A stretch of 64,000 nucleotides of DNA from Sphingomonadales bacterium. GTDB taxonomy: Bacteria; Pseudomonadota; Alphaproteobacteria; Sphingomonadales; Sphingomonadaceae. The position numbers and the translations under genes are program-made. Position 1 is the first letter of the stretch, and each line of letters opens with the position of its first letter. Under the pieces are notes generated by a model. It searched no databases, was not told the DNA's origin, and saw only the letters and a list, made by a program, of their open reading frames with translations. Below are positions 16,250 through 49,553 of the stretch, one piece after another. The DNA is taken from contig JADKCA010000008.1 in assembly GCA_016714795.1 (NCBI GenBank), forward strand, positions 66,083 through 130,082, read 5' to 3'.

Positions 16250-16424
16250 TGGTTCGCCGATATGCACTGTCCGCACCGGGCTCGCGAGCGCGCTGCGCTC
16301 GATAGGCATGACATTCAACTCAGGATGCATCCTCGATGATCTGCCGCCGCCCTTGCTGCGATGAACCATGCGGCGGTCGGGCCGGGGCACAACCGGCAAA
16401 GCAGCGGACCGGGAAGCCCTGCGG

Positions 16425-16540
16425 GCTTGCCGCACCACTCCTCGCTTTACCGGTTCCCCGCTGCTGGCGCGCGGTGTGCCGCCGTCCCTTGTCCCGCCGC
16501 TCCTCCTGTTCATCGCCGGGCAGTTCCGGCGAGTGTCAAC
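16425..16540 (+). promoter_or_regulatory. conserved non-coding element upstream of ssb (copy 1; homologous copy at 35088-35180)
   Basis: Shared blocks with the ssb-2 upstream region: GCC(C)GCACCACTCCT, GGTT(T)CCC, CGGTG, GTCC(C)T and ATCG(C/G)(C/G)GG. Confidence 0.4.
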
Positions 16541-16555
16541 AAGGAGGTACATCAC

Positions 16556-17293: not shown

Positions 17294-17372
17294 GCAAATC
17301 CTATACTCTCTCTCATCTCGCCATCAGGCTGACGCTTCATCGCCATAGCATGACGCTTGGGTGCTGGCGGCT

Positions 17373-17545
17373 GTCAAGGACCAGCGGTCCCCCCAATTTT
17401 GCGCATCGGACCGCTTCGCTTGTCCGCACACAAAATCGGCTCCCCCACTGGCGGGCGGGGCCGCGACAGCGCGTGCCGCGCGTCGTCCCTGACGGCCTGG
17501 CACCAGCGTCCAGACGATCTCCATCTTTCATCCATCGGGGATGAG
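17373..17545 (+). promoter_or_regulatory. structured non-coding element A (ssDNA-promoter-like or 5'-UTR element)
   Basis: Homologous to 18688-18835. It has identical blocks, sequence-different but still complementary inner stems, and an outer stem (17373-17381 with 17485-17493). See findings. Confidence 0.5.
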
Positions 17546-17568
17546 AGGGTTTTCAATTGGAGGTCTAT

Positions 17569-18524
17569 ATGTCCCAGCGTTTTTCAAACTTCGCCGATCT
17601 TGCAGATCATTATGCCGAGCAGGTCGCAAGCCCTGATTATGGCACCGCGTTCATGGAGCAGACCGAGATGGCGCGCCTCTCGATTGCAGAGGAACCGACC
17701 ACAGCCGAGATGCCCGATCCGGACAAGGCGCAGGCCGCGCTTGAGATGATCATGGCAACAGTCTTCGACCTGTTCCGCGATACACGCATGGAGGATTTCT
17801 CCGCCGAGATTGGCTGGGGCATTGCCAACAGCTTCCATGTCGTGGCGAAGCGCCTTGATGACCGCGAGGATGCCGCCAGCCAGAAGCTTACGGAATTGCT
17901 CAAGACCTGGGACCCGTCGGAAGTCTATCAGACCGAAGTCGAGGATTTGACGATGACGGCGCGGAGCCTGTCCGAATGCCGCGACGCGATGGAATGCATG
18001 CGCGAACATGCCGCCCGCATCTACCATGTCGAGACCGGAAGGCCGTTCTCTCCGGTGCGCGGCTCGCGGGTTGCCTCCAAAGCTACGGCATCAATGATCG
18101 AAGCCCGAGACTATATTGCCAGTCGGCCCAACAACGCCGTGAACAATATGCGCCATCGGGGGCTGTCGTCGCCTTCTCGGGCGGGCAAACATGGGCTGAC
18201 CATGAACTGATCTGGGAGTATCTCGACTGCATCAAAGCACGGATTCCGTCGATGATCCTCGCCACCACGGCACAGAACAAGGGTGCCGATGTCATCGCGG
18301 CAAGCTGGGCTGCAAAGAATGACGTGAAGGTCGTGCTGTGCCGTCTTGACCGTGCCTTGGGCAACCGCGCGGCCTTTGTGCGCAACGACCGGATCGTTGG
18401 CTTCCGTCCGGTGGAAGCGATCGTCTGCAGCGGAACCGGTATCCAGGCCAATCTCGCAGACAAGTTGCGGACCGCAGGCGTGCCGCTTCATGTCTTGCGC
18501 GAGCGGACAGTGATGCACGGTTGA
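17569..18524 (+). CDS. DUF2493 (SLOG-like)-domain protein with long N-terminal extension; frame break near 18125-18129 as assembled
   Basis: GGAGG lies before ATG 17569. Frame 1 reads to '...IEARDYIASRP'. The -1 frame continues 'QQRREQYAPSGAVVAFSGGQTWADHELIW...AFVRNDRIV...GTGIQANLADKLRTAGVP', which is DUF2493-type. The track splits it into 17557-18210 and 17976-18524. Confidence 0.65.
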
Positions 18525-18687
18525 TCCAATCCGCCATCCGCCAATCAGGGGTGCCAGGCCTTACGGGTCTGGTGCCCCTTTTTTGCCCGTTCGCACATCC
18601 GAAGGATCGGGTGGCGGGCAGGGCACCCAAAACCCAAACACACACTCTCGCAAGAATTCCAAGGATGAAGACCGGAGCTAGCCCGCC

Positions 18688-18835
18688 TCAAGGATGCGCG
18701 GTCCCCCCAATTTTTTCCTCCTCTGCGCTAACGCTCCGTTCCAGAGAAAATCGGCACCCCCGCGCCCCGCTGTCGCGGCCTTCGGTCCTTGACCCGGACC
18801 AGCTCCGATCTTCTCTGAAGAGACCTCTTCGATTT
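18688..18835 (+). promoter_or_regulatory. structured non-coding element B (homologue of element A)
   Basis: GCGGTCCCCCCAATTTT at 18698-18714 and AAAATCGGC at 18747-18755 are identical to element A. The inner stem is CTCTG/CAGAG (18721-18725 / 18742-18746). Confidence 0.5.
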
Positions 18836-18852
18836 TCAACAAGGAGGTTATC

Positions 18853-19161
18853 ATGTCAGCACTTGCCGTTCAGACCATCGCCGTTTTCAATCAGCCCGCT
18901 TATGACGCAGCCTATCGCACGGCATCGATCCGGGCCCAGCACAGCTTCTTCGACCAGCACATCGTCGAAGACGAGGACGCCGGTTTCATCGCCATCGACG
19001 AAGGCGATTATAACGGCCTGACACAGGAGCTCATCGACCGGATCGTCCACACCATCGCAGCGCAGATGGCAGATGATTTCGACCTTCCCGACTACGCCCG
19101 AGCCTCCCATATCGCCGCCGGTATCGATCTCGATTTCGACGCCGACGACTGCCCATTCTGA
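18853..19161 (+). CDS. small, strongly acidic protein ending in an SSB-tip-like peptide (DFDADDCPF)
   Basis: AAGGAGG lies before ATG 18853. 102 aa. My count is 16 Asp + 4 Glu versus 4 Arg and 0 Lys. A terminator follows. Confidence 0.55.
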   Translation: MSALAVQTIAVFNQPAYDAAYRTASIRAQHSFFDQHIVEDEDAGFIAIDEGDYNGLTQELIDRIVHTIAAQMADDFDLPDYARASHIAAGIDLDFDADDCPF

Positions 19162-34871: not shown

Positions 34872-35015
34872 ATGAAGCCGCCCAAGACCCTGCAAGGTTT
34901 TGGTGTCAGGCCAGCAAAGGGTGCCAAGCCACGACGTTGGCGAAGTGAGTGCATTCAGAGGCCGATTAAAACAAAGCCGTCACCGCCCAAGAAAACATCC
35001 CCTTTCATGAACTGA
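34872..35015 (+). CDS. possible small basic ORF (47 codons)
   Basis: AAGGAGAAAGG lies 4 nt before ATG 34872 ('MKPPKTLQGFGVRPAKGAKPRRW...'). Not in the track because it is under 60 aa. There is no other support. Confidence 0.2.
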   Translation: MKPPKTLQGFGVRPAKGAKPRRWRSECIQRPIKTKPSPPKKTSPFMN

Positions 35016-35087
35016 TCCAAGCCCCTGACCGGACCCGGCCAGGTCTGCAACCCGCGCTCATGCGGACCGTGTTGCTGCGCTTCGCGC

Positions 35088-35180
35088 CGCTGCCCGCACC
35101 ACTCCTGTGAGCGGGGTTTCCCTCACTGCGTTCGGTGCAGTCCTGACCGTGCCCGGTCTTATCGGGGCTCAGTCAAAGGG
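35088..35180 (+). promoter_or_regulatory. conserved non-coding element upstream of ssb (copy 2)
   Basis: Homologous blocks to 16425-16540 (GCCCGCACCACTCCT at 35092-35106, and others). Confidence 0.4.
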
Positions 35181-35224
35181 ATGGTCCCTTGGACGGTTTG
35201 AAACAGCTTCGAAAGGTCAATCTC

Positions 35225-43724: not shown

Positions 43725-43918
43725 TTCCACGAGGGTGAAGCTGACTAACCGGACCGTCCGCAAAAGGCGACGATAACGGAACCGCTGAAAGGTCCGCAAA
43801 TCCTGACGTTGGGCGATCTGTTCAAGACTAACGTTGGACTTCGGCTTGCAACGCCACCTGTAAATTGCTACACAATTGCGGCGTAAGGACCACCGGCTCC
43901 ATTTAAGGAGCTAGAACG
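43725..43918 (+). other. candidate oriT / relaxosome-binding region
   Basis: Intergenic region directly upstream of the RHH-T4CP-relaxase operon. Direct repeats GTCCGCAAA (43756, 43792) and ACGTTGG (43806, 43831), plus AATTGC x2. The nic site is not identified. Confidence 0.3.
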
Positions 43919-44200
43919 GTGAACCTCAAATTTGTGCCGGTCAGGCTGGAGCCTGATCTGGTCGATCTCCTCGACGATCAGGCTGTCAAGCGTGGAACGT
44001 CCCGCGCGTCAATCATTCGCGAGGGGCTGCGCTTCTTCATCGCGCGCCATGCGATCCTTGCCGATGTCGAGCTCCGTCGCGTCGAGGCTGACGAGTTCAT
44101 CTATATGGCGCTCGACCATATCATCCGCGCCAAGCATCATAACGTCTATCAAGGCATGCTCGAAGAAGCAGCCCGGCGCGCGCGAGCCCTCCGTGACTAA
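43919..44200 (+). CDS. ribbon-helix-helix (CopG/Arc-type) protein, likely relaxosome accessory/regulator
   Basis: AAGGAG lies 8 nt before GTG 43919. 'VRLEPDLVDLLDDQAVKRGTSRASIIREGLRFFI' is an RHH motif. Confidence 0.6.
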   Translation: MNLKFVPVRLEPDLVDLLDDQAVKRGTSRASIIREGLRFFIARHAILADVELRRVEADEFIYMALDHIIRAKHHNVYQGMLEEAARRARALRD

Positions 44201-44264
44201 GCCGGACACCTATTCCGACAATCGCCGGTCGGGTAAACTCACCCACCATTCAGCACGGGGGTCG

Positions 44265-46583
44265 ATGCCGCGCAACGCGGGCAATTTCACCCGCGGATCA
44301 CAGCTCATCACCCACGAATATATGATGTGGTTCGGCTCGGTTCGGATCCCGCTGACGGTCTGGTTCTTCCTCTTCCTCATCACCTTCTCGATCACTTCCT
44401 ATCTGGTTATCAGGGAACGTGAAGCGCAGATGATCCTCATGAAGCTCTATGCCGCCGGATGGCAGTTCATGGAGTTCAACTCAGCCAAGGTGATCAACCT
44501 GACCTTGCCATCGGGGGAGGTCATTCCCGCCCCGATCAATATGGTCAGCCACCATCCTGACGTGGTCGATGCCTGGAGCAGACTGATGCGCGCATTCTGG
44601 GGATCGGCATTCATGTCTGCCGTCATTGCGGTGCCTCTCACCATCTGGTTCGTTGATGCTTCGCACAAACGTGGTCGCGGTATTCTCGAGGAGCGCCACC
44701 AGCGTGGCGCCATGTTGGTAGATGCCGACCAATTGTCGGCAGTGATCGCCGCCCACAATGCTGCCGAGTTCGAGAAGGAGGCCCAGCGTTGCTTCCCCGA
44801 CAAGACCCGGGACGCCGTTCTGGCGATGTCTTTTGCCGGACGCAGGGCAGGCGGTGTCCATCACCCTTATGAACTGGCTGGCATTCGCTATCCATGGCGG
44901 ACCGAACAGTCGCACACCATGCTGATCGGCACGACCGGTACAGGCAAGACCACCCAGATGCGTGATATGATCGCGCAGATGCGGGCGCGGCGCGACCGGG
45001 CTGTCGTCTTCGATCTGACCGGGGCCTATGTCGAAGCCTTTTACAACCCGCAGACAGACATCATCCTAAACCCGATGGACAGGCGCTGTCCCTCTTGGTC
45101 GGTGTTCAACGAGTGCGAAAGTCATGCCGACTTTAGCAGCGTAGCGGCGGCATTAATGCCGATAGACGGGGGTGCTTCCGAACCATTTTGGATTTTGGCG
45201 GCGCGCACTTTATTTGTCGAAACCTGCATGCGGCTCAAACAGGCGGGCAAGGCGACCAACCGCGATCTGGCCAGCCGTTTGATGATGGCCAACCTGAAGG
45301 ACGTCCACAAGCTGCTCGAGCATACTGTTGCGGACCCGCTGACCGCGCCCGAAGCAGCCCGCATGGCGGAATCGATCCGGGCTGTTTTCAACACCAATGC
45401 GCAGGCACTGCGATTCCTGCCTGAAGACAATCCGCCCTTTTCTATTTGCGACTGGATCGAGCGCTCTGAGAATCCCGGCAGCATCCTGTTCATCACCTCA
45501 ACCCACAACGAGTTAGCGTTGAACCGTGCGCTGCTAACAGTCTGGATGAATGTCGCTGTCCACCGCTTGATGCGGCTGCCACGCACCCGGGATTTGCGGA
45601 CCTGGTTCTTTTTCGACGAGGTACATGCGCTGCACCGTCTGCCGGCGATCGAGGATGGCCTTCAAACGGCGCGTGGTTTCGGCGGCGCCTTCGTGCTGGG
45701 TATCCACAGCTTTGCCAAGCTCTCTGAAACCTATGGCGAAGAGGGCGCGCAGAATCTTGCCTCGCTAGCGCGGACCAAGCTCATCCTCGCAACGGCTGAC
45801 CGGGATACCGCCCAACATTGTGCGGACTATATCGGGCACCGCGAGGTACGGATGATGGATGAGGCCTATAGCTATGGCTATTCGAACATCCGCGATGCGG
45901 CAACGATCACGCCGCGCCAGCAGATCGAGCCGCTTGTCATCCCTGACGACATCATGAAGCTGCCATCGCTACGCGGCTTTCTGGTGTTCCCCGAAGGATT
46001 TGACGCTGCACGCATCCAGCTTGAATATAAGGACTATCCGTCGGTCGCCGATGCCTATCAGCCGCGAAAAAATGTAGAGCCGCTCAGCTTCGTTGCCGCC
46101 GATGTAGAGGAGAATCCTGAAGCGGGTGGTCGCGAAGGCAACGCCACACCGGAAGTTGTGATCGAAGACAAGCCAGCGGTCGCCCAAATCCCGGAATCGC
46201 GCGCTGCTGGTGCTGACGAGGCAGGTGTCGAGGAGTCTTCTGCGCAGGAAACCAATGCCATTCCGGTGCAACTGACTTCAGCTGATAGCCAGTCGCTTGC
46301 ATCGCGCAGTTATACGCCCACCGCCCCCGAGAGCCAAATCAGCAACGCGACTGTAGCAAAAGAGGGTTCCATATCGTCCAGCGTGAACAAGACAGACGGA
46401 AAGGACACGAACGAGACCAGTCCGGCACATCCGGGAAATAGCCGGCCACAGGACCAGCTCAGGCTGGACGTGACGCGTCGCGAACTTGATGAGGCTCTCC
46501 AACCCGAAACCCGGATCGAAAGGACCGTCTCCGGACCCACAGGTCATGATGGCTTCGAACCTGACGACGAATTGGACCTTTAG
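44265..46583 (+). CDS. type IV coupling protein (TraD/VirD4-family)
   Basis: Two N-terminal TM segments, Walker A 'GTTGTGKTT' and 'WFFFDEVH'. The track ORF start (43932) overlaps the RHH gene in another frame, so ATG 44265 is preferred. Confidence 0.85.
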   Translation: MPRNAGNFTRGSQLITHEYMMWFGSVRIPLTVWFFLFLITFSITSYLVIREREAQMILMKLYAAGWQFMEFNSAKVINLTLPSGEVIPAPINMVSHHPDVVDAWSRLMRAFWGSAFMSAVIAVPLTIWFVDASHKRGRGILEERHQRGAMLVDADQLSAVIAAHNAAEFEKEAQRCFPDKTRDAVLAMSFAGRRAGGVHHPYELAGIRYPWRTEQSHTMLIGTTGTGKTTQMRDMIAQMRARRDRAVVFDLTGAYVEAFYNPQTDIILNPMDRRCPSWSVFNECESHADFSSVAAALMPIDGGASEPFWILAARTLFVETCMRLKQAGKATNRDLASRLMMANLKDVHKLLEHTVADPLTAPEAARMAESIRAVFNTNAQALRFLPEDNPPFSICDWIERSENPGSILFITSTHNELALNRALLTVWMNVAVHRLMRLPRTRDLRTWFFFDEVHALHRLPAIEDGLQTARGFGGAFVLGIHSFAKLSETYGEEGAQNLASLARTKLILATADRDTAQHCADYIGHREVRMMDEAYSYGYSNIRDAATITPRQQIEPLVIPDDIMKLPSLRGFLVFPEGFDAARIQLEYKDYPSVADAYQPRKNVEPLSFVAADVEENPEAGGREGNATPEVVIEDKPAVAQIPESRAAGADEAGVEESSAQETNAIPVQLTSADSQSLASRSYTPTAPESQISNATVAKEGSISSSVNKTDGKDTNETSPAHPGNSRPQDQLRLDVTRRELDEALQPETRIERTVSGPTGHDGFEPDDELDL

Positions 46584-46586
46584 GCC

Positions 46587-49553
46587 ATGCATTCGATCGC
46601 CCCCGTCCGGTCTGCAGGCGGTGCCGCAACCTACTTTGCCAAGGACAATTATTATACCGCCGAGCAGAACGCGGAAGGCGGAGTCTGGGGCGGGCTGGGT
46701 GCGCGCGAGCTGGGGTTGGAAGGTGTGGTCGAGCCGCAGATCTTTGAGCGTCTCTTGAATGGTGAGCTGCCAAGCGGCGAGAAAGTGGGGCAGGTGGAGG
46801 GCAGGCGGCCAGGGCTCGATCTCACCTTTTCCATGCCCAAATCGGCTTCGGTGATGGCCTATATTGGAGGCGACGGTCGGGTGATCGAGGCCAATATGCG
46901 CGCGGTTCAAAAGACCATGGCCTTTGTCGAGCAGCGCTATGCCGAAGGCCGCACTTATGATCGCAACCGCCACGGCGAGCCTGAAAGGACCGGCAAGCTC
47001 GTCTATGCGCTCTTTCCCCATGACACGAGCCGTGCGCTCGACCCGCAGGCGCATATCCATGCTGTCGTCGCCAATCTGACCCGGATGGCTGACGGCAGCT
47101 GGAAGGCGCTGTGGAACGGCGAAATCTGGAAAAACAACACCGTCATCGGTCAAGTCTACCATGCGGCCCTTCGCGCCGAACTGCAAAAGCTTGGCTATGA
47201 AACCGAGGCGGTTGGAAAGCATGGCGCATTCGAGATCAAGGGGGTCTCCAAAGAGGTCCGCGACGAATTTTCGCGGCGACCCCTCGAGATCGACGCGAAG
47301 GTCAAGGAACTGGGCGTTACGTCGCCTGCGGGAAAGAAACTGGTCACACTGGCGACCCGCGACCCCAAACTCGATGTTTCCGACCGGGATGCATTGCTGC
47401 AAGACTGGAAAGACCGGGCGCAGGCTTTGGGCTTTGACGGAAATCCGCTGCACAGGGCCGCGATGGCGCGAATTGCCTTGTCTGGTCGGCCCAATTTTAT
47501 CGAGACGAGCAACGCGGCGCTTTCCGATCTGAAGGAGCGGATTGGGGGCTTGTTTCGTGCGCGCGATCCGTTGGTGACGAGCGGTATGGCCGCCGTGTTC
47601 ATGCCTGCCGAGCGTCTGAAAGCACAGCATGCGGTTGCCTCGAGCATAAGGCATCTTTCTGAACGCGAGGCTGCGTTTTCACAGGGCGATATCGTCAGAG
47701 CCGCGCTCGGGTTCCAGATCAAGGGGCTGGAGGTCGAGCCAGTCCTCAATCGCGTCACTGAACTGCTCGCATCTGGCGCTTTGATTGCCGGGCAATCGCA
47801 CCGCGCCGATGGCCAGTTCGATCTGGTGACGACCCCGGCTGCCCTCAAAATGGAGCAGGCCATCCTCGACACTATCCATGAGGGGAAAGGGCAGGGTAGG
47901 GTCTTGATCGCGCCCGGTGGGGTTCTCGCCAAATTGCAGCAAGCGTCAGGCGACCGCCTTCTCAATGAAGGTCAGACAAGTGCCGCCGTGCGGATACTCT
48001 CAGGCAGTGACCGGATGACGCTGGTGCAAGGTGTCGCTGGCGCAGGCAAATCCACGATGATCGCAGCCGTTGCAGGCGTCGCAGCGGGCGAGGGCATCCG
48101 GGTGCTGGGCCTTGCCTTTCAGAACAAGATGGTTGCCGATTTGCGGGACACCGGCATCGAGGCGCAAACCATCGCGTCGTTCGTCAATCGCTTTGCCAGT
48201 GCCGCCCATGAAGGTTCAGGTCCGAAATTCGAGGCCGCCAGGTCAGAACTTCGAAACACCATTCTTCTCGTCGATGAATCCTCGATGGTCTCCTCCCGCG
48301 ATATGCTCACACTCACCGAGATTGCGCAAAAGCTGTCGGTGGATGGCCTGCATTTTATTGGGGATCGCCAGCAACTGTCGGCAATCGAGCAGGGCAAGAG
48401 CTTTGCTGTTGCGCAAGCCGCAGGCGCACCGATGGTGCGTATGGACGAGAATATCCGTCAGCGCAGTTCGCCCTTGCTGCTTGCGGTTGCAGGTCTCTCA
48501 AACGTAGGCTTTGCAGGCCAGGCGCTTGACCTGCTCGCAGCCCATGACCGGGTCATCGAAGACAAGAAGGATCATGTCGGGGCTGCCGCCAAGCTCTGGC
48601 TCGATCTTGGCAAGGAGGGGCGAGAGCGCACAGCGATCTTTACCGCAGGGCGCGATGATCGCGCCCGGATCAATACATTGATACAGGACGGCCTGCTCAA
48701 GGAAGGCACGCTTTCGGGTGTTGGGCTGCCGGTGACCGTGCTGCAGGGCGTCAACAACAGCCGCGAGGAGCTGCGCCATACTTCGACCTATCAGGTCGGG
48801 CAGGTGCTCGAGGCCCGCTCGCGTGTTTCCGAAATCGGCCTGCCAAAGGGCAGCTATGCAGTTTCAGGGATCGATGCGCGCGGGCGGGTAACATTGCGCG
48901 ATGGCAAACAGGCCATCCGGTTCGATCCTCAAAAGATCGACCCTGCCAATCGCCAGGACCGGATAAGCCTGTCGGAGCGCGTCAGTCTCAAGCTGCATGA
49001 CGGCGAAACGATCTTGTGGCGTGAGCACGACAAGCCCCGCGACATTGTCAAATCAACCTATGCAAAAATTGTCAAAGCCGATGGCCAAGGCGTCACCGTT
49101 GAGTTGGCCGACAAACGCCAACTCCGCTTGCCAACCGGTGACCCGATGCTGGCTCGGCTTGATCTTGGCTATGCGCTCAACGCGCATATGGCCCAAGGCA
49201 TGACCAAGCCCGAAGCCATCGAAGTGATCGGGTCCTATCAGCGCAATCTGGCAACCCAGCGCACGCAAAATGTCCTCAACACCCGCGCGACCGACGATGT
49301 CCGGGTCGTGACCGACGATCTTGGTCGGCTGAAGCTTCAACTCGACCGGACGCCCGGGAACAAGACCTCTGCGCTTGAAGCGGTTGGCCGCATTGAAGTT
49401 GACCGCAAGCCCTCCGATCCCTTTGCGAAGCGCGACCTGCCGCCGCTCGCAATGAGCCCTGAGCTCAAAGCCAAGGTGGAGGCTGTTATGCCGACACCCG
49501 AACCCAAAATGCTCCCCGTGCCCGAAAAGAAGCTCGGGCTAGATCTCGCATGA
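46587..49553 (+). CDS. MOBF-type conjugative relaxase (TrwC/TraI-like) fused to RecD-like helicase
   Basis: 'AKDNYYTAE' near the N-terminus and the His motif 'HDTSRALDPQAHIHAVV'. The helicase part has 'GVAGAGKST' and 'LLVDESSMV'. Confidence 0.9.
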   Translation: MHSIAPVRSAGGAATYFAKDNYYTAEQNAEGGVWGGLGARELGLEGVVEPQIFERLLNGELPSGEKVGQVEGRRPGLDLTFSMPKSASVMAYIGGDGRVIEANMRAVQKTMAFVEQRYAEGRTYDRNRHGEPERTGKLVYALFPHDTSRALDPQAHIHAVVANLTRMADGSWKALWNGEIWKNNTVIGQVYHAALRAELQKLGYETEAVGKHGAFEIKGVSKEVRDEFSRRPLEIDAKVKELGVTSPAGKKLVTLATRDPKLDVSDRDALLQDWKDRAQALGFDGNPLHRAAMARIALSGRPNFIETSNAALSDLKERIGGLFRARDPLVTSGMAAVFMPAERLKAQHAVASSIRHLSEREAAFSQGDIVRAALGFQIKGLEVEPVLNRVTELLASGALIAGQSHRADGQFDLVTTPAALKMEQAILDTIHEGKGQGRVLIAPGGVLAKLQQASGDRLLNEGQTSAAVRILSGSDRMTLVQGVAGAGKSTMIAAVAGVAAGEGIRVLGLAFQNKMVADLRDTGIEAQTIASFVNRFASAAHEGSGPKFEAARSELRNTILLVDESSMVSSRDMLTLTEIAQKLSVDGLHFIGDRQQLSAIEQGKSFAVAQAAGAPMVRMDENIRQRSSPLLLAVAGLSNVGFAGQALDLLAAHDRVIEDKKDHVGAAAKLWLDLGKEGRERTAIFTAGRDDRARINTLIQDGLLKEGTLSGVGLPVTVLQGVNNSREELRHTSTYQVGQVLEARSRVSEIGLPKGSYAVSGIDARGRVTLRDGKQAIRFDPQKIDPANRQDRISLSERVSLKLHDGETILWREHDKPRDIVKSTYAKIVKADGQGVTVELADKRQLRLPTGDPMLARLDLGYALNAHMAQGMTKPEAIEVIGSYQRNLATQRTQNVLNTRATDDVRVVTDDLGRLKLQLDRTPGNKTSALEAVGRIEVDRKPSDPFAKRDLPPLAMSPELKAKVEAVMPTPEPKMLPVPEKKLGLDLA

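Follow-up and report, generated by a model that had tools for sequence, protein, structure and literature searches.

Paired hairpins on alphaproteobacterial plasmids: probable single-stranded DNA promoters of a new structural class

Two homologous non-coding elements, here called A and B, are present in the window (the whole stretch of 64,000 nucleotides that was analysed), and they belong to a widespread, undescribed alphaproteobacterial family that includes copies on Ti and rhizobial plasmids. It is the minus strand, not the mRNA strand, that adopts their covarying fold, and one arm of this fold carries the -35 and -10 hexamers of a sigma-70-type promoter, with the helix ending at the point where strand opening starts. 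As modelled from these features, the elements most likely serve as promoters that would work only while the plasmid is single-stranded in its new host after conjugation, and they probably represent a new structural class of Frpo-like single-strand promoter.

A sequence-only reading of the window had described A and B as a homologous pair of structured elements with stems that differ in sequence and retain complementarity, each element preceding an RBS and a start codon. All of the blocks, stems and coordinates that it listed are found in the window, and the two elements are paralogues with 74% column identity on alignment. They share the block GCGGTCCCCCCAATTTT (17384-17400 in A, 18698-18714 in B), which has no third match in the window at up to three mismatches (chance expectation 0.15), and the composite CCCCAATTTT-N-AAAATCGG occurs twice in the window against an expected 0.00. 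The tip stems read CGGAC/GTCCG in A (17407-11/17422-26) and CTCTG/CAGAG in B (18721-25/18742-46), the outer pairings are formed by GTCAAGGAC/GTCCCTGAC in A (17373-81/17485-93) and by TCAAGGA/TCCTTGA in B (18688-94/18786-92), and each element is followed by a small hairpin (17529-43 and 18817-30), an RBS and an ATG (17569 and 18853). The outer pairing of A exists as described, but the one mismatch ascribed to it, a plus-strand A opposite C, corresponds to a minus-strand G·T wobble, the commonest state of that position among family members. More generally, the stem pairs were real but had been described on the plus strand, and the promoter hexamers of the minus strand had been missed.

The claim that compensatory changes preserve the structure holds well beyond the pair. 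A covariance model was built on a curated seed of 30 sequences representing diverse copies, which replaced a default MAFFT and RNAalifold consensus of all 87 copies that was too gappy. The model found 138 matches in 100 loci, frequently two to three per locus, and the further homologues that the sequence-only reading had proposed to search for thus exist. Among 127 distinct homologues, which are mutually related and were in part chosen by scan pattern, 90.1% of cells pair compared with 73.2% after shuffling, changes on both sides are seen in 34 of the 46 pairs, and the covariation score is 0.379, which 0 of 500 shuffles reach, against 0.119 for shuffled sequences, with slid-partner controls at 0.04-0.065.

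The same homologues indicate which strand folds. The DNA folding energy is lower on the minus strand in all 87 copies (means of -55.2 vs -43.6 kcal/mol), including A (-57.6 minus vs -52.2 plus) and B (-46.0 vs -35.2). The minimum-free-energy helices contain 472 G·T pairs and 10 single A·C mismatches on the minus strand, compared with 108 and 136 on the plus strand, and the model's own pairs include 475 G·T vs 66 A·C. Two counts that do not depend on the alignment point the same way: the A of TCAAGGA faces C in 71 copies (TCCCTGA) and T in 27 (TCCTTGA), and the second pair of the A-tract helix P3 is a plus-strand A·C in 74/87. The covarying fold is therefore one of the minus strand and not of the mRNA strand, and this bias argues against a structure selected in a sense RNA, where the opposite bias would be expected.

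Read 5' to 3' on the minus strand, an element starts with the template flank, the 5' arm of a lower stem and the P1 5' arm GTCA(G/A)GGA, followed by two G+C-rich side hairpins (P5b, P5a), the P2 5' arm GAGYGG and GGGAG. The P3 5' arm CCGATTTT, the variable tip hairpin P4, which is the site of the two 5-bp tip stems given above, and the P3 3' arm AAAATTGG come next, and the remainder consists of GGGGA, the P2 3' arm, the P1 3' arm TCCTTGA(C/G), the lower-stem 3' arm, YANNNT and, at the 3' end, (N)GG(A/G)C. As the 3'-side strand is uninterrupted through P3, P2, P1 and the lower stem, and the side hairpins break the other strand only, the whole amounts to a quasi-continuous helix of ~60 bp.

In A, the whole hairpin of the minus strand, -10 flank and template arm included, occupies 17343-17516 and is matched over its full length by the covariance model (82.7 bits, E 4e-21); the complete hairpin of B lies at 18658-18816 on the same strand (106.4 bits, E 1e-27). 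The upper arm of A, as placed by fold and covariance model, spans 17381-17451 and comprises P2 (17381-87/17445-51), a purine-only 5x5 internal loop, the A-tract helix P3 (17393-17400/17432-39) and the tip hairpin P4 (17401-17431). The G+C-rich side hairpins P5, whose helices 3 and 4 covary, sit on the template-side strand only, between P2 and P1 (17452-17484). The purine-only loop, GGGAG opposite GGGGA (17388-17392/17440-17444 in A, 18702-18706/18755-18759 in B), is near-invariant, as is the A-tract helix beside it. Because this loop is conserved in sequence and not by covariation, loop and A-tract helix together suggest a protein contact; an UP-element-like role for them is a guess. A general re-pairing of the flanks beyond the bubble, as a downstream duplex, was considered and rejected, since the mean pairing is only ~0.25 and confined to some subfamilies. 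In some Rhizobiaceae and Paracoccus copies (e.g. L014, L089, L022) the flanks do re-pair beyond the bubble, GTCAGAGAGAG with CTTTCTGAC and with minus-strand G·T, giving a downstream duplex that resembles that of an open complex.

The 3' arm of the minus-strand hairpin is laid out as a promoter, with CTTGAC at -35, a paired spacer of 15-20 nt and YANNNT at -10. The rhizobial RpoD -35 consensus is CTTGAC, and the P1 3' arm reads CCTTGAC. The TTGA itself was fixed by the search pattern; the base after it is C (TTGAC) in 58/87 copies. In a hexamer search run without structural information, A occupies the second position of the -10 hexamer in 83/87 copies and T the sixth in 85/87, across 30 different hexamers such as TACAAT, TAAAAT, TAGAAT, CATGCT and CACCCT, and the mean hexamer score is +3.16 on the minus strand compared with -3.77 at the equivalent plus-strand place and -3.82 after shuffling. 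A G is found 2-3 nt past the hexamer in up to 75/87 copies, which fits a discriminator read as single-stranded DNA.

The position of these boxes relative to the helix is equally constrained. Along the non-template arm, pairing probability stays at 0.70-0.85 as far as -12 and drops to 0.12 at A(-11), with the same outcome for 80-nt flanks, which means that the helix ends where sigma-70 starts strand opening. A stem that ends between -12 and -11 would mimic a pre-melted sigma-70 promoter, with the template arm leading into the downstream gene. In A, the -35 hexamer TTGACA (17372-17377, minus) lies within helix P1, the outer pairing given above, on the non-template arm, and the 19-nt spacer (17353-17371) is the non-template arm of the lower stem, which in the minus-strand fold pairs with the template arm 17494-17510; in this lower stem, helix 1 of the model, 9 of 9 pairs covary. 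The -10 hexamer of A is CATGCT (17347-17352), in which C(-12) at 17352 is the last paired base, opposite 17510, and A(-11) onward is unpaired. The corresponding parts of B are the -35 hexamer TTGAGG (18686-18691, minus), again within P1, an 18-nt spacer (18668-18685) that pairs with 18795-18812, and the -10 hexamer CATCCT (18662-18667), whose C(-12) at 18667 pairs with 18813 and which is likewise unpaired from A(-11) onward.

Since the 3' arm can be the non-template strand only if the 5' arm and the 5' flank are copied, the product of such a promoter would be a plus-sense RNA that runs into the downstream gene. Fork geometry places the predicted start of A 11-13 nt past the fork on the template, at 17521-17525 (plus), and that of B at 18823-18827 (plus), and in homologues a conserved YNTCWTC (YNTC(A/T)TC) occurs 10-12 nt past the fork on the template, at the presumed start. 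Spacing to the translation signals is constant, with a Shine-Dalgarno (SD) sequence and a start codon behind 83/87 copies at a median of 60 nt after P1. Behind A, the SD at 17559-63 serves a frameshifted DUF2493/SLOG gene with a Pfam YAcAr match (E 6e-23), and behind B, the SD at 18843-47 precedes an ORF for an acidic protein of 102 aa. As duplex, the sense strand reads CTGAC in 64/87 copies and lacks a -10, and a simple promoter scanner found no sense-strand duplex promoter ahead of either gene. A strong terminator (18547-18579) lies just upstream of B, so the gene for the 102-aa ORF needs its own promoter.

A few further observations concern the transcribed regions. The predicted 5'-UTRs of A (17524-17548) and B (18817-18836) open with a hairpin and T-run that resemble a terminator and could mark the end of a short primer-like RNA or attenuate transcription; this feature is not conserved when family members are compared. 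The DUF2493/SLOG gene behind A (17569-18524) is split by a frame change into a part of 217 aa and a YAcAr domain in another frame; the copy on contig C11 of the same genome is intact at 322 aa, and relatives measure 347-351 aa. Proteins encoded directly behind the elements often have a tail like the SSB C-terminal tip: 18/80 complete ORFs end in PF, and examples include the DUF2493 proteins of pCAR3 (...DELPPF) and pNL1 (...DDLPPF) (loci L002 and L004), a family of ~55 aa (...SEPPF), a family of 160-275 aa (...GPPF) and the 102-aa ORF of the window (18853-19161; ...DADDCPF).

The genetic context would suit a conjugative leading region. Upstream of the elements and on the same strand as their genes are genes for ArdC, DUF6927, DUF6880, DUF3768, two RES-domain proteins and an SSB, toxin-antitoxin genes also lie on this strand, and the genes behind the elements are followed by two integrases and a defence island. 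Further along, the plus strand encodes a coupling protein of the TrwB type (43932-46583; Pfam TrwB_AAD_bind, E 3e-162) followed by a TrwC relaxase (46587-49553; Pfam TrwC, E 5e-82), and oriT is expected just upstream of this T4CP-TrwC pair, at ~43.5-43.9 kb. An R388-like nic motif was searched for in the window and not found; the minus-strand sequence ATTGTGTAGCAATTT / GCAATTGTGTAGCAATTT at ~43860-43885, just upstream of the T4CP operon, is loosely R388-nic-like and was dropped, as it is not shared with the compared loci, and no alignment with the pNL1 oriT region was obtained by eye. Orientation relative to the relaxase gene is constant. T4CP-TrwC is downstream of the elements in the window, in pCAR3 and in pNL1, where all genes are co-directional, the order on the two plasmids being ssb, MucR, element-DUF2493, ~103-aa ORF, T4CP and MobF. 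In five more genomes, eight element sites on 7 contigs have a TrwC gene on the same contig, and all eight are upstream of that gene; in 10/10 relaxase loci checked, the folding strand is the complement of the TrwC gene.

Transfer in MOBF systems (F and R388, for example) begins with the 5' end at nic and brings in the relaxase genes last, which makes the complement of the relaxase gene the T-strand and orients the leading genes read from that strand toward oriT. As the folding strand is complementary to the relaxase gene, this general MOBF rule would make the minus strand the transferred strand. On Ti-type plasmids the elements point toward the traG/oriT side, which by analogy agrees with this assignment. 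The template-strand logic of leading genes has been stated for known systems (PMC9849209, PMC11541004). The regions upstream of the two ssb genes of the window also fold more stably on the minus strand, ssb-1 (16350-16545) with -60.2 vs -54.7 kcal/mol and ssb-2 (35000-35190) with -48.9 vs -42.5 kcal/mol. The 3' arm of the ssb-1 hairpin reads TTGTGC-N16-CATGGT with a stem that ends before the A, and it appears to belong to a second class that is unrelated but shares the fork design; the hairpin upstream of ssb-2 has no clean -10.

A number of other explanations for such a hairpin have to be considered. It might act only as a priming signal of the ssi/sso type for complementary-strand synthesis, with no role in gene expression. 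Its location on the presumed T-strand would suit this role, the hairpins and T-runs of the 5'-UTRs of A and B could end a short RNA, and the passage of PMC12672017 that cites Masai and Arai (1997) describes Frpo and the ssoA origins of rolling-circle plasmids as making primer RNA with RNA polymerase. However, a priming signal does not call for an SD and an ORF at a fixed distance behind 83/87 copies, nor for two to three copies per leading region, each ahead of a gene, and the hairpin with T-run varies across the family, which makes this explanation unlikely on its own. As an added function, priming is compatible with a single-strand promoter.

It is quite unlikely, too, that the structure is part of an antisense RNA, made when a promoter close to the beginning of the downstream gene drives leftward transcription across the element. 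Wobbles of the minus strand would suit RNA (as G·U) as well as DNA, and one promoter-like site, CTGACA-16-GAAAAT, is present at 18859-18832 (minus); yet such a site is no more than chance would give (0.5 expected per region), and A lacks an equivalent. Moreover, an antisense RNA gives no reason for the fixed TTGAC, the YANNNT, the discriminator G and the end of the helix at -12, and leaves the constant spacing to the sense SD and ATG and the orientation to the relaxase gene unexplained.

The sequence-only reading had offered two candidate functions, a single-strand promoter active on the incoming T-strand and a riboregulator in the 5'-UTR, and the evidence supports the former and not the latter. 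A plus-sense RNA element (riboswitch, thermosensor or translational regulator) in the 5'-UTR of the downstream genes could draw on the fact that plus-strand RNA also folds better than shuffled sequence (z -3.3 for A, -2.7 for B; minus-strand DNA, -3.7 and -5.2) and on the small hairpin and possible anti-SD pairing that adjoin the RBS. Against this stand the most conserved non-canonical positions, which are A·C on the mRNA-sense strand (71/98, 74/87 and 56/127), the weaker plus-strand fold in 87/87 copies, the want of a matching Rfam family, and the finding of a terminator just before B and of no sense promoter upstream of the structure; the -35/-10 pair of the opposite strand, with its fork at -12/-11, would be left unexplained. 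With the start predicted downstream of the structure, the fold would be absent from the mRNA altogether, and a 5'-UTR regulator is very unlikely. Finally, it is barely credible that the element is a conventional leftward promoter of duplex DNA whose inverted repeats serve a regulator as operators: the minus-strand -35/-10 is intact in the duplex, but there is nothing plausible to the left for it to express, operators do not yield compensatory changes in seven helices, and duplex DNA would not account for G·T outnumbering A·C 7:1 on one strand.

The single-strand promoter is thereby the candidate that draws support both from a fold specific to the relaxase-complementary strand and from a -35/-10 pair with its fork at -12/-11. 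According to this model, conjugation would bring the minus strand of the window, the complement of TrwB-TrwC, into the recipient 5'-first from an oriT near 43.5-43.9 kb. While single-stranded, each element would fold into the quasi-continuous helix of P3, purine loop, P2, P1 and lower stem, the 3' arm of which would present the non-template strand of a sigma-70-type promoter, with CTTGAC in P1, the paired spacer and YANNNT. With the helix stopping after -12, A(-11), T(-7) and the G-rich discriminator would already be unpaired, as in a fork-junction or open complex. RNA polymerase would bind here and copy the 5' arm and its flank into plus-sense mRNA, starting ~11-13 nt past the fork (~17523 for A, ~18825 for B) and running into the DUF2493 gene and the 102-aa ORF, respectively. 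Synthesis of the complementary strand would then remove the hairpin and leave a sense strand with CTGAC and no -10, so that the element would be inactive as duplex DNA and expression would stop. A second role as primer for complementary-strand synthesis, as in Frpo, is possible by analogy.

Some observations count against the single-strand promoter or lie outside it. The -10 hexamers of the window, CATGCT and CATCCT, match the consensus poorly and were not picked up by the simple promoter scanner, and spacers of 15-20 nt are broader than usual. The purine-only loop and the YNTCWTC at the presumed start are not accounted for, and neither is the potential of the duplex form to fire leftward, away from the gene. 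In the duplex, the minus-strand -35/-10 pairs (17347-17377 and 18662-18691) are intact and directed leftward, antisense to the end of the preceding gene, and they could be a by-product or could act as an insulator against read-through.

A fuller scenario can be put forward, tentatively, as its parts taken together fall somewhat short of being probable. The elements would be an Alphaproteobacteria-wide ssDNA switch and a natural 'pre-opened' promoter, in which the hairpin mimics the open complex with a duplex from ~-60 to -12 and a single-stranded -10 and discriminator. The conserved G·T pairs would keep TTGAC on the non-template arm of the hairpin and at the same time degrade the duplex promoter of the sense strand to CTGAC, the purine loop and A-tract helix would dock the alpha-CTD, SSB or a plasmid factor, and the leftward duplex promoter would insulate the leading genes from read-through.

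Members of the family were found by several routes. Nucleotide searches (blastn) of a plasmid collection with the two elements matched 142 and 168 records, ~78% of which are typed as conjugative, from host genera that include Rhizobium, Agrobacterium (including pTiBo542), Sinorhizobium, Novosphingobium, Sphingobium and Sphingomonas; almost all matches are in alphaproteobacterial genera, and the 'distant' ones among the matches listed are all alphaproteobacterial. A pattern scan of genomes, with one genome per species and at least 120 loci, gave at least 111 unique matches and at least 87 unique full copies, from Sphingomonadales, Rhizobiaceae, Mesorhizobium, Acetobacteraceae, Paracoccus, Xanthobacter, Labrys, Aureimonas and others. 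As the scan pattern contained TCAAGGA, CCCC..TTTT and AAAA..GG, conservation of those blocks is overstated; the block TCC[CT]TGA, which was absent from the pattern, follows 29-73 nt further on in 98/111 of the matches listed. An even sample of the class yielded the element in 5/150 other genomes, each of a different family. Within the window, the covariance model with filters off detected no copies besides A and B (next match 15.9 bits). The same genome carries a second pair on contig C11 (4600-6081), an A-like copy (90% identical) and a B-like copy, and this pair sits on a second replicon or element.

If the elements are indeed single-strand promoters, the principle would extend to the Alphaproteobacteria with a different and sharply defined architecture, carried by plasmids and islands of Rhizobium, Agrobacterium (pTiBo542), Sinorhizobium, Mesorhizobium, Paracoccus, acetic acid bacteria and sphingomonads. 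The covariance model would then mark the leading regions and the transferred strand of these replicons, and the family would provide a list of the genes expressed first in a new host, among them those for DUF2493/SLOG proteins and several small proteins with SSB-tip-like tails. The use of ssDNA by RNA polymerase could also be studied on the elements, as compact fork-junction templates of natural origin.

To our knowledge, the IncF and IncI plasmids of enterobacteria are the only ones for which single-strand promoters have been demonstrated by experiment, and a wider distribution has been inferred mainly by similarity to those few sequences. In the literature searched, no paper was found that links ssDNA promoters with these alphaproteobacterial plasmids. 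The Frpo/ssi elements known and tested in IncF and IncI plasmids now form three classes (PMC12672017). In F, Frpo1 and Frpo2 are paralogues separated by a few kb that read the T-strand as template (PMC9849209, PMC11541004, PMC12672017). A bioinformatic survey extended the known set by means of similarity to the IncF and IncI sequences and of E. coli consensus boxes (PMC11541004); both this survey and PMC12672017 deal with elements of the enterobacterial type. The elements described here resemble Frpo1/Frpo2 of F, ssi1-3 of ColIb-P9/pESBL (class 1) and classes 2 and 3 of pESBL/F in that they are non-coding hairpins that rebuild -35 and -10 boxes, would lie in leading regions and fold on the transferred strand (both presumed here), would stand ahead of establishment and anti-defence genes with the T-strand as template, and occur as paralogous copies a few kb apart. 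They differ in lacking sequence similarity, with their blastn matches almost all in alphaproteobacterial genera and none in the 20,395 records of E. coli complete genomes and plasmids, and in their branched fold P1-P5 with two side hairpins and an invariant purine-only loop, whereas Frpo/ssi elements are simple long stem-loops. Moreover, the -10 starts at the end of the stem and not inside it, and the hosts are Alphaproteobacteria, where E. coli-type elements worked poorly, the leading genes of pESBL being poorly induced in S. meliloti (PMC12672017). The elements are accordingly filed as a new structural class, one that would work like Frpo yet lies outside the Frpo sequence family.

Structured non-coding motifs near ssb and anti-restriction genes are also found among the plasmid- and ssDNA-associated entries of Rfam; the comparison suggested by the sequence-only reading gave no Rfam 15 model at gathering score and nothing relevant at E up to 10. 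The ssoA and ssoU origins of rolling-circle plasmids are likewise folded ssDNA with promoter-like boxes recognised by RNA polymerase. Those origins, however, make a short primer on small Gram-positive plasmids and have no genes behind them, whereas here an SD and an ORF follow at a fixed distance, on large conjugative replicons. The closest likeness in geometry is to the artificial fork-junction templates of sigma-70 biochemistry, which are duplex to -12 and have a single-stranded non-template strand from -11; those templates are laboratory constructs, whereas the forks described here, at 17352:17510 in A and 18667:18813 in B, are natural and conserved.
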